Positions 1-13,217 of a DNA stretch of 64,000 bases are shown piece by piece. Location: NCBI GenBank assembly GCA_964435575.1, contig CAYSZS010000002.1:762-64761 (forward strand), written 5' to 3'. The stretch's first letter is position 1, and every line of letters begins with the position of its first letter. The stretch is from an uncultured Gammaproteobacteria bacterium. GTDB lineage: Bacteria; Patescibacteriota; Microgenomatia; UBA8517. Position numbers and translations under genes: made by a program. Below the pieces are notes generated by a model that worked only from the letters and a program-made list of their open reading frames with translations, was not told where the DNA came from and did not search any database.

Positions 1-956
1 ACAGATTCTACCTCGGCGTTTTGAAATACGCCGGAGAATATTATCAAGGTTCTCATAAAACCTTTATCAGCAAAAAGCTGTTTGGTGAAGTGCAAAAGCA
101 GGTTGAGAAAATTGAACGACCAAGACAAAAAGGCCACAATTTCGCCTTTGCAGGTCTTGCGACCTGCGGCGAATGCGGCGCCGCAATCACAGCAGAGCAA
201 CACATCAAAAAATACAAAAATTGTACTAGTCAAACTTTTATTTACTATCGCTGCACTAAAAAGCTCAAGCCTTGTACGCAAAAATATGTTTCAGAGTTGG
301 AACTTGAACCACAAATAAGGAAAATTGTTCGTGATTGCGGCTTGCACGAAAACTGGGAACCATATTTTGAAAAGTGGATTACAGCAACAGAGGTAAAAGA
401 CAGACTAGCCGTCGAAGTTGAAGAAAAGCAGATAGGCGAACAAATCCAAGAATCAGAAATAAAACTAAACAGACTTCTTGATGGTTATCTCGATCAGGTT
501 ATCGAACCTGAAATTTACAAACAAAAGAAGAATGAATTGTTTGATGAAAAACTTAAGTTAGAAGAGAAAAAATCGCAGGTTGAGAAAAACGGAAGTATTT
601 GGCTCGAACCTATGAGAGAATTCGTAAATTGTGCCTTGCAGGCGCAAAAAATCGCGCGCGCTGAAAATAATTGCCATGATTTGAGAGTCATGGCAAAAAA
701 AGTCGGCTCGAACTTCTTTTTAATGAATCGGCGGCTCTCGGCGAATTTGAATTTCCCCTTTGCAGCGCTGTCTGCGGAGGCGGGCGCAGCCAGCGCTATT
801 CCTACTTCCGACTCGATTTCCTTTTTGGTGAGCCTGGAAGGACTCGAACCTTCAACCATCACCTTAAGAGGGTGTTGCTCTACCGTTGAGCTACAGGCCC
901 TAATATTTCAAAATTGTAAGCAAAGCTTGGCACTGCTGTCGCATTGTAAGAGTTAA
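1..956 (+). CDS. Large serine recombinase, C-terminal portion (5' end outside window). The 3' end reads through the opposite-strand tRNA-Lys, so the last ~40 codons are probably not native
   Basis: Frame is open to position 1. Recombinase zinc-ribbon motif CGECGA...YYRC with a coiled-coil-like E/K-rich region. Stop at 954-956 lies beyond the tRNA at 826-900. Confidence 0.6.
   Translation, partial: RFYLGVLKYAGEYYQGSHKTFISKKLFGEVQKQVEKIERPRQKGHNFAFAGLATCGECGAAITAEQHIKKYKNCTSQTFIYYRCTKKLKPCTQKYVSELELEPQIRKIVRDCGLHENWEPYFEKWITATEVKDRLAVEVEEKQIGEQIQESEIKLNRLLDGYLDQVIEPEIYKQKKNELFDEKLKLEEKKSQVEKNGSIWLEPMREFVNCALQAQKIARAENNCHDLRVMAKKVGSNFFLMNRRLSANLNFPFAALSAEAGAASAIPTSDSISFLVSLEGLEPSTITLRGCCSTVELQALIFQNCKQSLALLSHCKS
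826..900 (-). tRNA. tRNA-Lys(CTT), CCA encoded
   Basis: Cloverleaf read by eye on the reverse complement: acceptor GGGCCTG/CAGGCTC, D-arm GCTCAACGGTAGAGC, anticodon loop CTCTTAA, T-arm GAAGGTTCGAGTCCTTC, then ACCA. Confidence 0.85.
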
Positions 957-2877: not shown

Positions 2878-3063
2878 GTCGTAAAAACGGGATATTAGAA
2901 TCAACACTTGTTCAGCTAGAAGTCTAACCACTACGGTTGGTTTCAGAAAAAGGATATAGAAATTAATAATCAAACTGATTATTAAAATTAGGATAAGCAA
3001 AGATAAGAGCCTGGAAATTCCTGAGGATTGGTTCAATCTTAGGAAACTTCCTCGCACAGGAAA

Positions 3064-3137
3064 GGTCGCTTGGCTCAGTTGGTTAGAGCGTCTCGTTTAC
3101 ATCGAGAAGGTCGGGGGTTCGAATCCCTCAGCGACCA
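3064..3137 (+). tRNA. tRNA-Val(TAC)
   Basis: GGTCGCT..GCTCAGTTGGTTAGAGC..TCTCG-TTTACAT-CGAGA..GGGGGTTCGAATCCCTC-AGCGACC-A. Confidence 0.9.
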
Positions 3138-3254
3138 CTCGTCGAAGCTCATCTTAAGCGCTACGTTTTCAATTAAATGAAAACTACGCTTTTTTCAGAT
3201 GGCTTCTCCTCTCAAAATCTCTTTGAGATTTTGTATAATACAACAACAATATTA

Positions 3255-3360
3255 CGAAGTAATTTTGAAAGGAGAAATGGCGGAGTGTTAAGGGGTAAGC
3301 GAAAACGGATTACTATAAACGAAGTCCATTTCGACGGACCGAGGTAGCCAGGATGGTTGG
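3255..3360 (+). repeat. Degenerate copy (~65-70% identity) of the ~85-nt upstream leader plus the first ~12-20 nt of tRNA-Leu(TAA); the intact copy is at 9941-10045
   Basis: Shared strings AATTTTGA(A/G)AGGAGAAAT, GTAAGCG, ATTTCGACG(G/A)(A/G)CCGAGGT(A/G)GC. Copy 1 lacks a T-arm, so it is not a tRNA. Confidence 0.5.
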
Positions 3361-3409
3361 TCCAAAGCTTATATTAAGTTAAGATAGAATTTAATTACCC
3401 CCTACAAGA

Positions 3410-3919
3410 TTACTTAGCTTTAAATCTAGCAGAAGCCCATAAAAATGGAATAGTATGAGCTAAGTTAAAAAAAAGATTTTCTTGTTTCATCTGAAAGGTC
3501 AAAACTCCCAAGCCGATCGTGGTCAAGGCAAACACATGTAGCTCTGATATTTTCTTACCACTTATTGGGAAATCTATTGCTATAGTGAAAGAAAAAATTA
3601 CAGTATAAAGTAGAAATATTACCTCAAAGATAAGTATTATTAAATCAAAAATTTCAGTCGGTGAAGAATAAATACCCGATATGAGCAAAACAAATAAAGG
3701 GATTAAAAAATATAATGGTGGCAATAGGAACAGCTTTTTAATTCTTTCCAGTTTTGTTCCTTCTTTTAGCAAGTTTGCCGCTATTTCAAGTCCGATTACT
3801 GGGAAAAAGATATCTAACGGTCTCAATATGTTTTGTGCATCGGTAAAATTGAGTTTTTCGACAGGAATTAAGCTATAGAAGAGAAATCTTCCTATGAAGA
3901 ATAAACCTACATAATTCAT
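3410..3919 (-). CDS. Hypothetical polytopic membrane protein
   Basis: 169 aa with several hydrophobic segments; no recognisable motif. Confidence 0.45.
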   Translation of the reverse strand: MNYVGLFFIGRFLFYSLIPVEKLNFTDAQNILRPLDIFFPVIGLEIAANLLKEGTKLERIKKLFLLPPLYFLIPLFVLLISGIYSSPTEIFDLIILIFEVIFLLYTVIFSFTIAIDFPISGKKISELHVFALTTIGLGVLTFQMKQENLFFNLAHTIPFLWASARFKAK

Positions 3920-4000
3920 TTCTTAACATTACCACTACTCTGGTAAGTTTGCTATAATATGCCCTAAGATAAGATTTCCTTTTTGGGGATTAATTTCCTT

Positions 4001-4022
4001 GCCGAGATAGCCAAGGTGGTTG
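4001..4022 (+). repeat. tRNA-Phe 5' fragment, copy 1 (acceptor plus D-arm only)
   Basis: GCCGAGATAGCCAAGGTGGT matches the first ~20 nt of tRNA-Phe at 4767. Confidence 0.6.
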
Positions 4023-4062
4023 TCTCACAAATATTGTTGAGGTTGAACGGAGGTGATAATTA

Positions 4063-4260
4063 ATGGAAAGAGTACCAGGTGATAAAGGTCATAGAACAAC
4101 AGAGGGTTCTCGAGACGATATTGTGCAAAAAGTTTTAGATATTGCACGAGGTATGCCAGGAGACCCATTAGTGAGTAGTGAATTTGATGAAAACGATAAG
4201 CCTTTAGCTGTAATAGAATTTGAACAACAATCTGAAAAAGAAGCAACTACTAGTGAATAA
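4063..4260 (+). CDS. Hypothetical small acidic protein
   Basis: 65 aa. Strong SD (GGAGGTG) 8 nt upstream of ATG. Bracketed by the tRNA-Phe fragments. Confidence 0.4.
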   Translation: MERVPGDKGHRTTEGSRDDIVQKVLDIARGMPGDPLVSSEFDENDKPLAVIEFEQQSEKEATTSE

Positions 4261-4270
4261 GTATTTTTAA

Positions 4271-4310
4271 GCTGAGATAGCCAAGGTGGTCACGGCGGGC
4301 GCCTGAAGAA
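4271..4310 (+). repeat. tRNA-Phe 5' half fragment, copy 2 (through the anticodon loop)
   Basis: GCTGAGATAGCCAAGGTGGTCACGGCGGGCGCCTGAAGAA versus intact GCTGCGGTAGCCAAGGTGGTCACGGCGGGTCTCTGAAGAA. Confidence 0.65.
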
Positions 4311-4347
4311 CAATTACAATTTATCAGGCAACATGTAAACTTAACGT

Positions 4348-4776
4348 GTGAAGATATGCTCTAAATGTAAAAAGAAAAAAGTTTTATTTCAGTTTTACAA
4401 GAGAAAAACAGGTCTGAGAGCTGGAAAGTATTATGAGAAGTGTAAATCCTGCATGAAAGTCAGGGGTAGAAAGTATTATACAGAGAATAGAGATAGGCAG
4501 TTGCCTTTAGCAAATATTAGACGACGGAGGTACTATAGAGAGAAACGCGATTTCATAATAAATGCCAAGAACAGGCCATGCGCAGACTGCGGAAATAAAC
4601 TTCCAAGTTATGTGATGGATTTTGATCATCGTGATGGGGGTGATAAGATCGTTGATATAGCTCGTGCTGTTACGGCGAATTGGTCTCTAAATAAAATTAA
4701 AGCAGAAATTGAAAAATGTGATATTGTTTGTGCTAATTGTCATAGAATGAGAACTTACGAGTATATGCTGCGGTAG
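4348..4776 (+). CDS. HNH endonuclease with N-terminal Cys-rich zinc finger; homing-endonuclease-like
   Basis: CSKCKKKK...CKSC zinc finger. HNH motif DFDHRDGGDK...N...CANCHRMRT. GTG start; the 3' end overlaps the tRNA-Phe 5' end by 10 nt. Confidence 0.7.
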   Translation: MKICSKCKKKKVLFQFYKRKTGLRAGKYYEKCKSCMKVRGRKYYTENRDRQLPLANIRRRRYYREKRDFIINAKNRPCADCGNKLPSYVMDFDHRDGGDKIVDIARAVTANWSLNKIKAEIEKCDIVCANCHRMRTYEYMLR

Positions 4777-4839
4777 CCAAGGTGGTCACGGCGGGTCTCT
4801 GAAGAAGATCAGATTCTGGTTCGATTCCAGACCGCAGCA
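4767..4839 (+). tRNA. tRNA-Phe(GAA) with an unusual 11-nt D-loop
   Basis: Acceptor GCTGCGG/CCGCAGC, anticodon stem GGTCT/AGATC with loop CTGAAGA, T-arm TCTGGTTCGATTCCAGA. Confidence 0.8.
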
Positions 4840-4859
4840 CACTTGAAAGGCAGGTTTCT

Positions 4860-4931
4860 GCGGGAGTAGTACAGTGGTAGTACGCTTCCTTGCCAAGGAA
4901 GAGGTCGCGGGTTCAAATCCCGTCTCCCGCT
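4860..4931 (+). tRNA. tRNA-Gly(GCC)
   Basis: GCGGGAG..GTACAGTGGTAGTAC..CTTCC-TTGCCAA-GGAAG..GCGGGTTCAAATCCCGT-CTCCCGC-T. Confidence 0.85.
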
Positions 4932-4936
4932 CAGAA

Positions 4937-5974
4937 TTAAGAAGGAATCGGAAGCCTTTCTTTGCCCTTTGCATCACGAACGGTATTGATAAGAAGCCTT
5001 CGGAGAATTTCCTGAAAAGAAATGCCGTATAAATCCAGAATATAAGCCAAGGCGCAATCCGTTTCCTTCGGACCGAATGCGGGGTTGGTGTTGGAATCGA
5101 TAAAAAAATATCTGCCCGACGAGTCCATCCTGATGTCAAACTTCCCGTAGTCCATCATTTTGGTTATATCGAATGCCTTTCTGACATAAGCCCTTAAAAG
5201 AGGTTCGTCGTATTTTTGATAATGTATGTTTGTCAGTTTTTTACTTAACCACTGATCCTCAAATGTCATAAATATATATTTTCTGTCCGCTCCCTCAAAC
5301 ACTTTCTCGGCCAAATAAACTTTTTTATTTAATCCCTCCAAAAGTATAGCCGTAAACTCTCTGCCAACTATAAATTCTTCAACCAAAACGGGTTGTTTAT
5401 AAGTTTGAATCAAAAACTTTATTCTTTCTCTCAGATGTCTTTCGTTTTCGGATATAGCGTCTTGAGTTATTTCCACCGCGCCGTGAATTTCATTCAGCTT
5501 TGAAATTAAAGGATAACGAAGCGTAGGGTCAAGAAAATCGGACGAAGAATTAAAAAGCTGATAATTAGGCACGGGAACTCCATTTTGTTGAAGCAGTTTT
5601 TTTATGACAAATTTATTGGTGTCCAGGGACATTCCCAAAATATCCGCACCAGTGTAAGGAATTTCGAGAAGTTCCAAAACTCCCGGGATGGATGAGGACA
5701 AATATTCATAGCCCTTGACGGAATCGACAAGATTTATTACCGCGTTAGGCTTATCTTTTTTTAGTTTTTGGGGAAGACCGGAATTTCCGGGATATAAAAT
5801 TGGTTTAATCTTCAGTTTTTCTAAATATTTAGATATAACTCTCGCGTCTTTATCGGCGCCTTTTTCGGTAATGAACTGCATCTCTGTCGGGAAATACTCC
5901 CTTTTGACGTCACTATAGATAATGCCTACTTTTTCGGGTATTTCGTAGCCATTTTTTCCATTCGCTATTTGCAT
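4937..5974 (-). CDS. ATP-grasp enzyme of the D-alanine--D-alanine ligase family
   Basis: C-terminal GKFDIRMDSSGRYFFIDSNTNPAFGP and EEFIVGREFTAILLEG resemble Ddl ATP-grasp motifs. Confidence 0.6.
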   Translation of the reverse strand: MQIANGKNGYEIPEKVGIIYSDVKREYFPTEMQFITEKGADKDARVISKYLEKLKIKPILYPGNSGLPQKLKKDKPNAVINLVDSVKGYEYLSSSIPGVLELLEIPYTGADILGMSLDTNKFVIKKLLQQNGVPVPNYQLFNSSSDFLDPTLRYPLISKLNEIHGAVEITQDAISENERHLRERIKFLIQTYKQPVLVEEFIVGREFTAILLEGLNKKVYLAEKVFEGADRKYIFMTFEDQWLSKKLTNIHYQKYDEPLLRAYVRKAFDITKMMDYGKFDIRMDSSGRYFFIDSNTNPAFGPKETDCALAYILDLYGISFQEILRRLLINTVRDAKGKERLPIPS

Positions 5975-6153: not shown

Positions 6154-7299
6154 CTAAATAAACCTAACTTGCATGCCTTCGGCTAGCTTAGTCGAAAGTG
6201 AAACCTCTTGACCTGGAAATTTTGAACCCGCCCCCCAAATTTTTGCCTTTATTTTTTCTTTAACAAAATCTTCCCCTAATTTCTCCCCAACGTCGTACAA
6301 TGTAGAACCCACTTTCATTATAATCGGGTTATCAAAATCAGGGTCTTCGTCCGGTCGTACCAGATAGCCCCTCAAGAAATTAAGTGATAGCCACATTTTT
6401 TCTTTCAACTCGGTAAGACCGGTTCCTTTTTCAGCGCTGATAAATAGTGGAGTAACGGTTGCAGCCTCAAATACACCCGGCGGCCTGCCTGTCGGAAAGG
6501 CAGGGTGGATTAGCTTGGCACCCGTTACTTTGTTGTTTAAGTCAGCTTTATTAATAATAGAAATTGAGGGTACGTATACGCGGTTTAGAGAAAAAGCGTC
6601 AATTAGCCTTTCTATTGTCAGCTTTTCATTGATGGTTATTTCGGCGTTTTTAATTCCCAACTCTTGTGCAATAGATTTAATAGTTTCTTTAGTAAGGTCT
6701 TGCTTGATGTTTGAATGGAGAGTTAATCCTCCTGAAACTTTCTTGTCTATAATTACATTTGGTCGCACAATGTTGAGGCGTATGCCGTTTTCCTCCAAAG
6801 TTTTTTTAATTCTTTCAGTTGCTTCAGGGCGGTCAACATCGGTCATAAGTATTATTAAGTCTGCCCCCCGAGCTACCGATAAAACTTCCCTACCTCTCCC
6901 CCTCCCTTCTTCAGCCCCCTCGATAAGCCCAGGAACATCAAGTATCTGAATTCGAGCGTTTTTGTAAATCATCATTCCGGGAATAACGTTTACCGTCGTA
7001 AAAGCGTAGGGAGCAACCTTGCTTTGGGCGTTTGTCAATTTGTTAATAAGAGTTGATTTTCCCGCTGAGGGGGGGCCGATTAAGATTACGGCTGCATCAC
7101 CTTGTTTTTTAACGGCGTATCCGCCTCCGCCACCCTTTTTTACAGACTCAACCCGAAGACCGTCTTTTAGCTTTGCAAGCTTTGCGCGAAGCCTGCCAAT
7201 ATGGTGCTCTGTGCCTTTGTGATAGGGAGTATCACGAATCTCTTTCTCGATCCGCTTGATATTCATATGAGTATTTTCGGAATTGGTTAAGTGCACCAT
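6154..7299 (-). CDS. DRG/Rbg-family GTPase (Obg superfamily) with C-terminal TGS domain; start may instead be the internal Met at 7266
   Basis: G1 GPPSAGKST, FTT, DVPGLIEGAEEGRGRGR (classic DRG), NKAD. C-terminal TGS-like tail. Confidence 0.75.
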   Translation of the reverse strand: MVHLTNSENTHMNIKRIEKEIRDTPYHKGTEHHIGRLRAKLAKLKDGLRVESVKKGGGGGYAVKKQGDAAVILIGPPSAGKSTLINKLTNAQSKVAPYAFTTVNVIPGMMIYKNARIQILDVPGLIEGAEEGRGRGREVLSVARGADLIILMTDVDRPEATERIKKTLEENGIRLNIVRPNVIIDKKVSGGLTLHSNIKQDLTKETIKSIAQELGIKNAEITINEKLTIERLIDAFSLNRVYVPSISIINKADLNNKVTGAKLIHPAFPTGRPPGVFEAATVTPLFISAEKGTGLTELKEKMWLSLNFLRGYLVRPDEDPDFDNPIIMKVGSTLYDVGEKLGEDFVKEKIKAKIWGAGSKFPGQEVSLSTKLAEGMQVRFI

Positions 7300-9902: not shown

Positions 9903-10024
9903 TAAAATATACATGTATTCGTAATTATTTAAACAAAATTCCGTAGGAATTTTGAGAGGAGAAATTACGAAACGATAAGCAATAAGCGTAAGCGTATTGT
10001 GATAAGTGAAGTATATTTCGACGA

Positions 10025-10112
10025 GCCGAGGTGGCGGAATTGGTAGACGCGAGGGCCTTAAGAGCCCTTGTCCCGATGGGACGTGGGGGTTCGAGTCCCC
10101 CTTTCGGCACCA
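10025..10112 (+). tRNA. tRNA-Leu(TAA), type II, CCA encoded
   Basis: GCCGAGG..GCGGAATTGGTAGACGC..AGGGC-CTTAAGA-GCCCT, long variable arm, T-arm GGGGGTTCGAGTCCCCC, CCA. Confidence 0.9.
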
Positions 10113-12353: not shown

Positions 12354-13217
12354 GTGAGACAAAAAGGTTTTGCACATTTATTTGTAATAATAGCAATTTT
12401 TATTATTGGTTTAGGAGGAGTAGGATATTCAATCTATAAAAAAACTACAGAAAGGAATCAAAGTCAACAAGTTTCTGAGACCATTCCAACAGAAGAAAAT
12501 CAAACACCCGCTTTGAGTCCAACCTCGGACCAAAAGCCGACTCCTTTGAGTAAACCAAAAATAACGTCTACAAATACACCCGTTCCAACTACACAATCTT
12601 ACAACGGAGTATGCGATGTAATCACACTTGCCGGATCAAATCCAAACGAGGTTGTACTTACATATAGTCTTACCTCCTCCGGTGGAAGGTACATGAAAGA
12701 GGCAAGATGGGATTTGAATAACGACGGACAATGGGATCATGATTTTAGCTCTTCAAATGCCCAAGTAACTACAAATTTAACTAGCGGCAATAGTAAAACT
12801 GTACGATTACAACTAAAACTCTCTGATAACACTTTTACTAACGCCTGTATAAAAAACATTTCTGCTCCATCTGGCACCTGGATTACCATCTGGGGTTATG
12901 TATTCTCGGATAATAATTGTAGCGGTTTTATGGACAGTTCAGAAAGTGGAATTGTAGATGTTCCCGTGAGGATCACCAAAATTTCAGACTATAGTACTTA
13001 TGGTACGACAAATACAGACGGCGGTGGAAAATTCTCTTACACCTCTCTTTTAAACGAACTTATAGAAATGACTGTAACAATGACTTCACCGTCGGGATAC
13101 AAAAGTCATCCCACCCACATTATAGGAAGCTCTCTAATGGGTTATGGAAAAAACACAAATGTTCAAATGAACATTCCTCAAGTTCCATACGCAAGTGTGG
13201 GTCAATGTAGTTTTTAA
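12354..13217 (+). CDS. Secreted/anchored hypothetical protein with a CarbopepD_reg/Cna-B-like beta-sandwich region
   Basis: N-terminal TM segment FAHLFVIIAIFIIGLGGVGY. T/S/P-rich linker. GYVFSDNNCSGF...TNTDGGGKFSY resembles a carboxypeptidase regulatory-like domain. Confidence 0.45.
   Translation: MRQKGFAHLFVIIAIFIIGLGGVGYSIYKKTTERNQSQQVSETIPTEENQTPALSPTSDQKPTPLSKPKITSTNTPVPTTQSYNGVCDVITLAGSNPNEVVLTYSLTSSGGRYMKEARWDLNNDGQWDHDFSSSNAQVTTNLTSGNSKTVRLQLKLSDNTFTNACIKNISAPSGTWITIWGYVFSDNNCSGFMDSSESGIVDVPVRITKISDYSTYGTTNTDGGGKFSYTSLLNELIEMTVTMTSPSGYKSHPTHIIGSSLMGYGKNTNVQMNIPQVPYASVGQCSF

Follow-up and report, generated by a model that had tools for sequence, protein, structure and literature searches.

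Endonuclease genes that stand freely among tRNA genes have been described before. SegB of the phages T4 and T6 is a free-standing GIY-YIG endonuclease encoded among the clustered tRNA genes of the phage; the enzyme cleaves within tRNA genes at a 27-bp site that holds the conserved T-psi-C motif, and it spreads together with the neighbouring tRNA genes (PMC2330249). SegB homologues are widely linked to tRNA genes, and rearrangement is driven by microhomology that the segB 3' end shares with a tRNA 5' end (PMC13096335). In and beside tRNA arrays, furthermore, HNH genes are more widespread than any other protein-coding genes, i.e., on Mycobacterium chromosomes, plasmids and phages and in cyanobacterial L-arrays such as that with Anabaena all8564, and were proposed to move or diversify these arrays in a SegB-like role (PMC5966550, PMC6582537, PMC8421152). 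Here we describe a stretch of 64,000 nucleotides from contig CAYSZS010000002.1 (the window), in which an HNH endonuclease gene overlaps an intact tRNA-Phe gene and is preceded by partial copies of the tRNA-Phe 5' part. Homologues of this HNH gene are linked to tRNA genes throughout the family, the site is occupied in some relatives and empty in others, and similar tRNA fragments recur at other tRNA genes. We consider it rather probable that the region records the scars of a free-standing, homing-type HNH cassette living on tRNA genes.

As a free-standing endonuclease gene among tRNA genes, SegB is the closest functional analogue. In contrast to the phage-borne GIY-YIG enzyme, however, the protein studied here has an HNH core and resides in cellular core tRNA clusters; the SegB site lies in the T loop, whereas the scars described below point to the anticodon arm, and here the open reading frame (ORF) overlaps the tRNA gene and a displaced partial tRNA is left behind. 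The HNH genes of tRNA arrays are a second related case, and the present family includes such phage members (Phabba, StarPlatinum). The array reports describe co-location only, whereas here single essential chromosomal tRNA genes are occupied in the Candidate Phyla Radiation (CPR), Acidobacteriota and others, the proteins form clades by tRNA identity, and fragments give both the insertion point and the tRNA exchange. The association of endonuclease genes with tRNA genes is already known from SegB and the arrays, and the form with scars and allele exchange appears to be new: in the literature that we searched, which was incomplete, we found no report of clade-by-tRNA specificity, of residence at single core tRNA genes in CPR or Acidobacteriota, of allele exchange or of anticodon-arm scars.

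Two further systems share part of this architecture. In Allomyces mitochondria, Paquin et al. reportedly described in 1994 a foreign atp6 C-terminus that came with an endonuclease ORF. The likeness lies in a mobile endonuclease ORF with its own copy of the target gene, by which gene function is kept and the displaced piece is left as a pseudogene fragment; the Allomyces case, however, concerns protein-coding mitochondrial genes and in-frame fusions, in contrast to a bacterial tRNA gene and a complete copy here. Islands and prophages with tyrosine integrases likewise show an intact tRNA on one side and a partial direct repeat on the other, and can form tandem arrays. Yet these elements encode an integrase, usually duplicate the tRNA 3' part and carry identical attachment (att) cores, none of which was found here.

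The tRNA-Phe locus and its HNH gene

The longest tRNA-Phe fragment, fragment 2, lies just upstream of the HNH gene. Its positions 4271-4310 align to tRNA-Phe nucleotides (nt) 1-40 with 35/40 identity and a Smith-Waterman score of 55, with a maximum of 23 in 100 shuffles. The original prediction had named two decayed tRNA-Phe fragments, at 4001 and 4271, and both indeed align to tRNA-Phe beyond shuffles (17/20 and 35/40 identity). There are three, however (4271-4311, 4001-4020 and 3338-3357), and for fragment 2 the term decayed is wrong. Compared with HNH-free relatives, its homology spans 4269-4311 at 97.7%, and it is identical at 40 of 41 positions to the intact tRNA-Phe of the HNH-free loci L106 and L141; the 12 nt upstream match the old Val-Phe spacer of further HNH-free loci (L132, L127, L120). 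The acceptor stem and the anticodon stem hold all five differences from the resident gene, each time in the 5' strand. Because the differences are confined to these strands and the sequence matches HNH-free alleles, fragment 2 is the fossil of a functional allele of the GCTGAGA/GGCGC type and not a decayed copy of the resident gene; the other fragments, too, go back to different functional alleles. Its homology reaches as far as canonical nt 40 and breaks off within the anticodon stem (3' strand).

The features of the locus are as follows, with the basis of each assignment in brackets.

3064..3138, + strand: tRNA-Val(TAC) (ARAGORN)
3245..3337, + strand: copy of the tRNA-Leu(TAA) leader/promoter region (direct repeat D2; alignment)
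3338..3357, + strand: fragment 0, tRNA-Phe-like nt 1-20, ACCGAGGTAGCCAGGATGGT (repeat family D7)
3410..3919, - strand: hydrophobic ORF of 169 amino acids (aa), cargo, between fragments 0 and 1 (ORF list)
4001..4020, + strand: fragment 1, tRNA-Phe nt 1-20, GCCGAGATAGCCAAGGTGGT (alignment; 13-mer count; allele comparison)
4020..4049, + strand: junction-like module after fragment 1, TTGTCTCACAAATATTGTTGAGGTTGAACG (position-specific scoring matrix, PSSM, from relatives)
4063..4260, + strand: 65-aa orphan ORF with a GGAGGTG ribosome-binding site (ORF list; sequence)
4259..4311, + strand: fragment 2, 12 nt of Val-Phe spacer and tRNA-Phe linear nt 1-41, canonical 1-40 (alignment)
4312..4347, + strand: short spacer with weak promoter-like boxes (sequence and alignment to relatives)
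4348..4776, + strand: HNH endonuclease gene, 142 aa (phrog_2255; invariant residues; AlphaFold2)
4767..4840, + strand: intact tRNA-Phe(GAA) (ARAGORN, Rfam)
4860..4932, + strand: tRNA-Gly(GCC), conserved downstream neighbour (ARAGORN, Rfam; relatives)

The intact tRNA-Phe(GAA), placed at 4767-4840 by ARAGORN, scores 57.7 bits over 4767-4839 with the Rfam tRNA model and carries the allele GCTGCGG/GGTCT. Its bases 8-10 form the TAG stop of the HNH ORF (4774-4776), the last 10 nt of which overlap the tRNA. The tRNA-Phe D arm (GCCAAGGTGGTCACGGC) is unusual, yet normal for the tRNA-Phe of this clade. Across the clade (L015-L034, L106-L142) the D arm, TAGCCAAGGTGGTCA[A/C]GGC, resembles that of class II tRNAs (Leu/Ser/Tyr), but the variable loop is short, and the first 8 nt are common to tRNA-Phe and tRNA-Leu(TAA). 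The same arrangement was found on 13 contigs from different projects (NCBI, JGI, ENA; e.g., GCA_000993305.1 and GCA_001793075.1) that are 99.9-100% identical over 3000-5000 and stem from a groundwater population of Candidatus Woesebacteria (CPR, Microgenomates). We hence rejected an assembly artefact, given 13 independently assembled and concordant contigs. Over 3000-5000 these contigs show no strain-level polymorphism within the species besides two single nucleotide polymorphisms.

The end of fragment 2 is close to the anticodon-loop position at which tRNA introns classically sit, and intron-encoded endonucleases that target tRNA genes exist, for example I-Ssp6803I. The fragments might accordingly be functional RNA, that is, a split tRNA 5' half, a tRNA interrupted by a group I intron with the HNH gene, or a tRNA-like regulatory element. 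We give this explanation hardly any credence. Rfam returned neither an intron nor another structured RNA at E≤10 in 3300-5300, a matching 3' half (acceptor TCTCAGC) is absent from the window, a complete tRNA and not a 3' exon follows the ORF, and folding of the three fragments does not surpass that of shuffled sequences (z = -1.4, -1.2 and +0.4). A split tRNA or an intron was rejected on these grounds; the HNH ORF is free-standing between tRNA genes, with no Rfam intron model at E≤10.

The 142-aa protein has an N-terminal zinc ribbon, a long helix and a CxDCG...DFDH...CANCH core. Its gene and the 65-aa ORF (4063-4260) exist as had been claimed, including the overlap of the HNH stop with the intact tRNA. 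The proposed comparison with endonuclease families gave matches to the PHROG 'HNH endonuclease' families phrog_2255 (E=1e-33), phrog_3106 (2e-25) and phrog_4234 (2e-11), whereas Pfam had no match at E≤0.1 and NCBIfam none above noise. The protein matches HNH families only, and no GIY-YIG domain was found. Across 25 homologues (53-67% identity) 36 residues are invariant, among them the catalytic-type D93-H94, N130 and H132, two CxxC pairs flanking the core (C78, C81, C128, C131) and a second, N-terminal zinc-type site (C4, C7, C32, C35). The AlphaFold2 model has a pLDDT (predicted local distance difference test) of 94, and its top Foldseek matches in the PDB are all HNH proteins. Judged from its sequence, the protein is a probable member of the HNH (beta-beta-alpha-metal) endonuclease superfamily, with metal-dependent DNA cleavage as its predicted activity.

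Upstream of the GTG start codon of the HNH gene lie the boxes TTACAA (4314-4319, 3/6 consensus) and TAAACT (4336-4341, 4/6), and the latter ends 6 nt before the start. A promoter consensus scan did not list these boxes, and a role as HNH promoter that yields a leaderless mRNA is our conjecture.

Occupied sites, empty sites and recurrent scars

Comparison of the tRNA-Phe neighbourhood in related genomes, as the original prediction had suggested, yielded both occupied and empty Val-Phe sites. At least 15 other species-level loci of the Microgenomates type carry an HNH gene between tRNA-Val(TAC) and tRNA-Phe(GAA), with orthologues of 51-67% aa identity in Woese-, Davies-, Levyi- and related bacteria. 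The cluster order is Leu-Leu-Val-[HNH]-Phe-Gly in every orthologue context examined, and the ORF extends 0, 10 or 36 nt into tRNA-Phe. Many homologues end with the sequence AEVAKVVTAGL, a tail encoded by tRNA-Phe nt 1-36, where U33-G34-A35 serves as stop codon; this stop (TGA) within the tRNA-Phe anticodon was seen in L015, L017, L019, L021, L026, L028-L032 and L061. If the HNH gene and the tRNA were co-transcribed, RNase P cutting at the tRNA 5' end would leave an HNH mRNA without a stop, which could be a built-in limit to expression.

Empty sites were sought in metagenomes as a Val gene followed by a Phe D arm within 31 nt. The scan gave 37 loci with Leu-Leu-Val-Phe-Gly synteny, in which Val and Phe are 1-31 nt apart and none of which contains the HNH motif. 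One site is thus polymorphic for presence and absence of the HNH gene across related genomes. Between L017, which has the gene, and L140, which has not, the flanks are 84% identical and a clean indel of ~495 nt lies between Val and Phe. In this pair Val is identical at 76/76 positions and Gly at 74/76, but Phe only at 58/76; likewise, window and L136 agree at 75/75 positions in Val but at 54/74 in Phe. Since Val is identical and Phe discordant in both pairs, the tRNA beside the HNH gene was therefore exchanged while its neighbours were not. The resident-type allele GCTGCGG/GGTCT occurs only beside an HNH gene (window and L022, 71/74 identical) and at 0/37 empty sites. Near tRNA-Gly of another HNH-free CPR locus (L142), ARAGORN reports a tRNA with a CTA anticodon (labelled Pyl), possibly an amber suppressor.

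A short motif, [GA][TC]CTGAA[AG]AA[CT], marks the left junction of the occupied sites. In about 10 of 15 Phe-type loci this anticodon-loop remnant is conserved at a distance of ~45-55 nt before the HNH start, the position where fragment 2 ends in the window. Among 36 HNH-free Phe loci, a Phe fragment was found in L135 only (12568-12724). There, only 33 nt separate a Phe 5' fragment from the intact gene downstream, and this gap holds no ORF; the fragment consists of nt 1-20, a hairpin and then the anticodon loop to ~nt 45. It may be a scar that remained after loss of an HNH cassette.

Scars are not confined to tRNA-Phe. Among 38 loci with an HNH gene directly upstream of a same-strand tRNA, seven (window included) have a significant 5' fragment of the same tRNA just before the HNH ORF. 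They comprise the window (Phe), L070 and L074 (Gln, Parcubacteria), L076 and L089 (Arg-TCG, Saccharimonadia), L078 (Gln, Acidobacteriota) and L085 (Lys-TTT, Chloroflexia), hence four tRNA types in four phyla, and all seven fragments end at canonical ~36-43. A mirror layout, tRNA followed by HNH gene, is found at three Arg-ACG loci with a 3' fragment after the HNH gene, which begins at nt 38 in L052 and at nt 54 in L048 and is degenerate in L063. The scar breaks thus lie in or near the anticodon arm except in L048. Compared with the intact gene, fragments carry compensatory stem changes at pair 10:25 in L074 and in the T stem in L052; these, too, are fossils of functional alleles. The insertion of cassettes that displace a 5' fragment and leave an intact tRNA downstream, as originally predicted, is in this respect supported by the HNH-free alleles and the seven loci.

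The linkage to tRNA genes holds far beyond the Val-Phe site, and the claim of a tRNA-associated homing-type HNH gene consequently gains support from the family and not just from this locus. In GTDB, surveyed with one genome per species, 74 of the best 80 family members have a tRNA gene within ~100 nt; in IMG/VR, this applies to 43/80 viral loci within 150 nt. The family occurs in CPR, Acidobacteriota, Actinomycetota, Planctomycetota, Chloroflexota, Gemmatimonadota, other bacterial phyla and a Nitrosotalea archaeon. In a tree built from the HNH cores, proteins beside the same tRNA type cluster together (Phe, Gln-CTG, Arg-ACG, Arg-TCG, Arg-CCT, Pro-GGG, Pro-TGG, Lys-CTT, Asn-GTT, Glu-CTC). Some clades cross phyla, as Pro-TGG joins Actinomycetota and Gemmatimonadota, Asn-GTT a Gammaproteobacterium and Sulfobium, and Arg-CCT Actinomycetota and Planctomycetota. 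In Mycobacterium phage Phabba, the family HNH gene overlaps tRNA-Met by 10 nt in an array of 30 tRNAs, and Streptomyces phage StarPlatinum has another family member in a tRNA array. Horizontal spread with the target kept is indicated by these cross-phylum clades of common tRNA identity, by the discordant Phe allele and by the phage members.

Single loci show further arrangements. In L069 (Daviesbacteria, 3953-4693) two paralogous HNH genes flank one tRNA-Glu(CTC), both overlapping it, and paralogous copies stand beside different tRNAs in L064 (an Actinomycetota tRNA array) and L081 (the Nitrosotalea archaeon). In the L064 array, ARAGORN also assigns a four-base anticodon (ccgt) to a tRNA that neighbours an HNH gene.

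Fragments 0 and 1, the DNA between them and the neighbourhood

Compared with HNH-bearing relatives, the window contains ~1.1 kb of extra DNA between tRNA-Val and the HNH gene, and this DNA holds the two shorter fragments. An exact 13-mer, TAGCCAAGGTGGT, is common to fragment 1, fragment 2 and the intact gene and has three exact copies in the 64 kb; with ≤2 mismatches there are 7 matches compared with 0.75 expected, a number that 0/100 shuffles reach. Fragment 1 is more similar to fragment 2 (19/20) than to the resident gene (17/20) and equals exactly the first 20 nt of GCCGAGA-type alleles (L110, L118, L120, L126, L136, L015). The site that follows it, 4020-4049, comes second among 127,942 positions when scored with a PSSM derived solely from the junctions of 7 relatives, ranks 4 of 6394 tiles against the L027 junction, and resembles the anticodon-loop remnant and -35-like box upstream of HNH in relatives. 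Fragment 0 (3338-3357) is 80% identical to fragment 1 and closest to GCCGAGG-type alleles. The ~30 nt after it resemble the L032 junction upstream of HNH (rank 5 of 6394 tiles), which is suggestive at most. With the PSSM of the relatives, the sequences after fragments 0 and 2 reached z ~ 3 only, and fragment 1 alone has a convincing module.

Fragment 0 adjoins a leader copy of another tRNA gene. A direct repeat, D2, of 104 nt and 74% identity relates the 3204-3348 region to 9929-10035; within it, the 93 nt at 3245-3337 are a copy of the leader 9932-10024 that precedes tRNA-Leu(TAA) at 10025. The joint between this leader copy and fragment 0 is the shared start CCGAGGT. A 35-nt inverted copy of the D2 start (3204-3238) forms a hairpin with 3262-3280.

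The DNA between the fragments gives no sign of an HNH gene. The 65-aa ORF retrieved only itself among 5.8 billion proteins and has no family match in Pfam, NCBIfam or PHROGs. For the 169-aa ORF, described as a membrane protein, only 4 homologues were found; those in the contexts L104 and L105 are not accompanied by tRNA-Phe fragments. We hence rejected both ORFs as recognisable mobile cassettes, one being an orphan and the other known from other contexts, and neither having homologues in L015-L100. In 3139-4347, neither hidden Markov model searches in six frames nor sensitive blastn against the HNH gene detected HNH remnants, and a tandem amplification of fragment plus HNH gene with subsequent decay, in the manner of SegB, was rejected because no residual HNH similarity is left there. 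For fragments 1 and 0, the successive insertions of the original prediction are thus no more than a conjecture, given an orphan 65-aa ORF, a 169-aa ORF found elsewhere and no HNH trace.

Repeated tRNA 5' ends could also result from tandem site-specific integration into the 5' part of tRNA-Phe, with att duplications and an integrase acting in trans, e.g., the serine recombinase at the window start. Indeed, a large serine recombinase gene ends at 956, adjoining tRNA-Lys, and in L065 a 30-nt repeat of the tRNA-Arg 3' end, 2 kb away, brackets an island with an HNH gene. We nevertheless regard this as very improbable. No recombinase ORF is present in 3139-4766 or between any repeat pair, and the orthologous HNH loci L015-L032 have no such gene. 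The units between the fragments and the gene measure merely 270, 496 and 663 nt. The repeats are unequal in length (20, 20 and 41 nt) and differ from the intact gene at 3-5 positions, i.e., 5 of 40 in fragment 2, and the att-like duplication of the original prediction was abandoned for the lack of an integrase between repeats and for this inequality in length and sequence. To our knowledge, large serine recombinases use short cores and leave no 40-nt duplications.

More weight has the possibility that the HNH gene has long been passed on vertically within the Val-Phe spacer, domesticated or tolerated, and that the fragments arose without any role of HNH by local duplication, slippage or ectopic recombination among tRNA 5' ends. 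The same slot is occupied in many Microgenomates, Phe fragments are kept only in this species, and the HNH-free L135 has a Phe 5' fragment with no HNH gene before the tRNA; furthermore, the fusion of fragment 0 to the tRNA-Leu(TAA) leader copy via CCGAGGT indicates ectopic recombination. We still judge this explanation unlikely. Fragment 2 matches a different allele that is intact in HNH-free relatives, Phe is divergent between HNH-bearing and HNH-free relatives with identical Val, the slot is empty in 37 related loci, and the layout of fragment, HNH gene and tRNA recurs at four tRNA types in four phyla, and additionally in mirror form.

Several fragments contain inverted sequences. Fragment 1 can fold back on itself (GAGATAGCCA-AGG-TGGTTGTCTC), and orphan tRNA fragments in two other loci carry inserts in the D-arm region that are GC-rich perfect palindromes, namely CCTGCCTGCGCAGGCAGG in L070 (~3540-3560) and TCCGCCTACGGCGGA in L135 (12588-12602). 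Such palindromes and the fold-back may be a signature of hairpin-mediated break repair.

The wider neighbourhood shows variation of its own. The window starts (1-956, + strand) inside the large serine recombinase gene (Resolvase, Recombinase and Zn_ribbon_recom domains), the 3' end of which overlaps a tRNA-Lys(CTT) on the opposite strand (826-900, -). A segment of ~100 nt (window 729-831) recurs inverted just upstream of the recombinase start (L001 16671-16769), and the length of the recombinase ORF varies among near-identical strains (422+95, 513, 524 and 540 aa); the region could be an invertible or otherwise variable segment. From 2418 on, the conspecific contig L012 matches the window at 100% identity; upstream (L012 1-1097) it differs, as a TerC gene replaces the 465-aa ORF and the recombinase region, and the break coincides with the first bases of tRNA-Leu(GAG). 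Either the strains vary here or the assembly is chimeric at the tRNA. On the other side, a DRG/Rbg-type GTPase gene (MMR_HSR1, MMR_HSR1_Xtn and TGS domains; 6154-7299, -) adjoins the tRNA cluster here and in relatives; this GTPase family is mostly discussed for archaea and eukaryotes.

A possible route of tRNA replacement

For the homing-type HNH cassette, we propose a mobile unit made up of a short junction, a weak promoter, the HNH ORF and a complete tRNA-Phe gene, whose first bases encode the end of the ORF. The enzyme would cut an HNH-free tRNA-Phe gene in or near the anticodon arm. The right break end would then be repaired from the donor via the tRNA 3' half and the downstream tRNA-Gly, with tRNA-Gly(GCC) as the likely right-hand homology arm. 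Were the cut to fall after canonical nt 40, the left end would read ...CCTGAAGAAC, the sequence of the junction motif, and this end could pair with the identical ~10-nt anticodon-loop remnant upstream of the cassette promoter. The motif would thus be conserved because it serves as microhomology in left-end capture. By synthesis primed at this microhomology, the HNH gene and the donor's whole tRNA-Phe would be copied in; synthesis through the cassette and subsequent annealing in the tRNA 3' half or tRNA-Gly would give the observed structure. Nucleotides 1-40 of the recipient would stay behind as an orphan, fragment 2, and in the mirror class the 3' part of the resident gene would be left instead. 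Fragments 1 and 0 might be older leftovers of earlier breaks at the same gene that were patched with other DNA, such as the tRNA-Leu(TAA) leader copy, the membrane-protein gene and the orphan ORF.

A number of observations weigh against such a cassette. Cleavage, cut position, repair route, mobility and the order of events are all read from scars. Some pairs of HNH-bearing and HNH-free loci share a Phe allele (L016/L113, 74/74; L015/L110, 73/74), and replacement therefore is not universal, or else clean loss of the HNH gene is possible. Among 19 HNH-bearing Phe loci, Phe fragments were found in the window only; the event that produced them could be specific to this lineage. The junction motif also occurs 9 nt after the intact Phe in L024 and might be a promoter element rather than a tRNA remnant. 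Around the break, no sequence difference separates HNH-linked from HNH-free alleles, which leaves self-immunity unexplained. Fragments 0 and 1 end at nt 20 and not at nt 40, there is no HNH trace beside them and the cargo ORFs are not recognisable cassettes. Finally, the HNH models of Pfam fail to match the protein, and its Foldseek matches, although all HNH proteins, are weak.

We may speculate, with more doubt than conviction, that the HNH family as a whole acts as a drive that replaces tRNA genes. Each clade would cut one tRNA gene at the 3' edge of the anticodon loop and overwrite it with the linked allele, and the remnant of ~10 nt would provide the left-end microhomology. Core tRNA genes of CPR, Acidobacteriota, Actinomycetota and others would then be swapped continually between lineages, and the same process would seed and diversify the tRNA arrays of phages and plasmids.

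Usually, tRNA genes count as landmarks that are stable and inherited vertically, with a passive part as integrase targets. The sequence data presented here suggest that a widespread nuclease family may actively cut and replace them, together with the transfer of its own allele. Were this so, three observations would find an explanation: that no passenger of tRNA arrays is commoner than the HNH gene, that tRNA alleles pass from one lineage to another, and that some tRNA clusters are strewn with partial genes. The scars point to the anticodon arm as the predicted cut region and to the HNH-free alleles as candidate substrates, by which the role of array nucleases becomes testable. Such enzymes would be compact nucleases of ~110-170 aa with long natural recognition sites.

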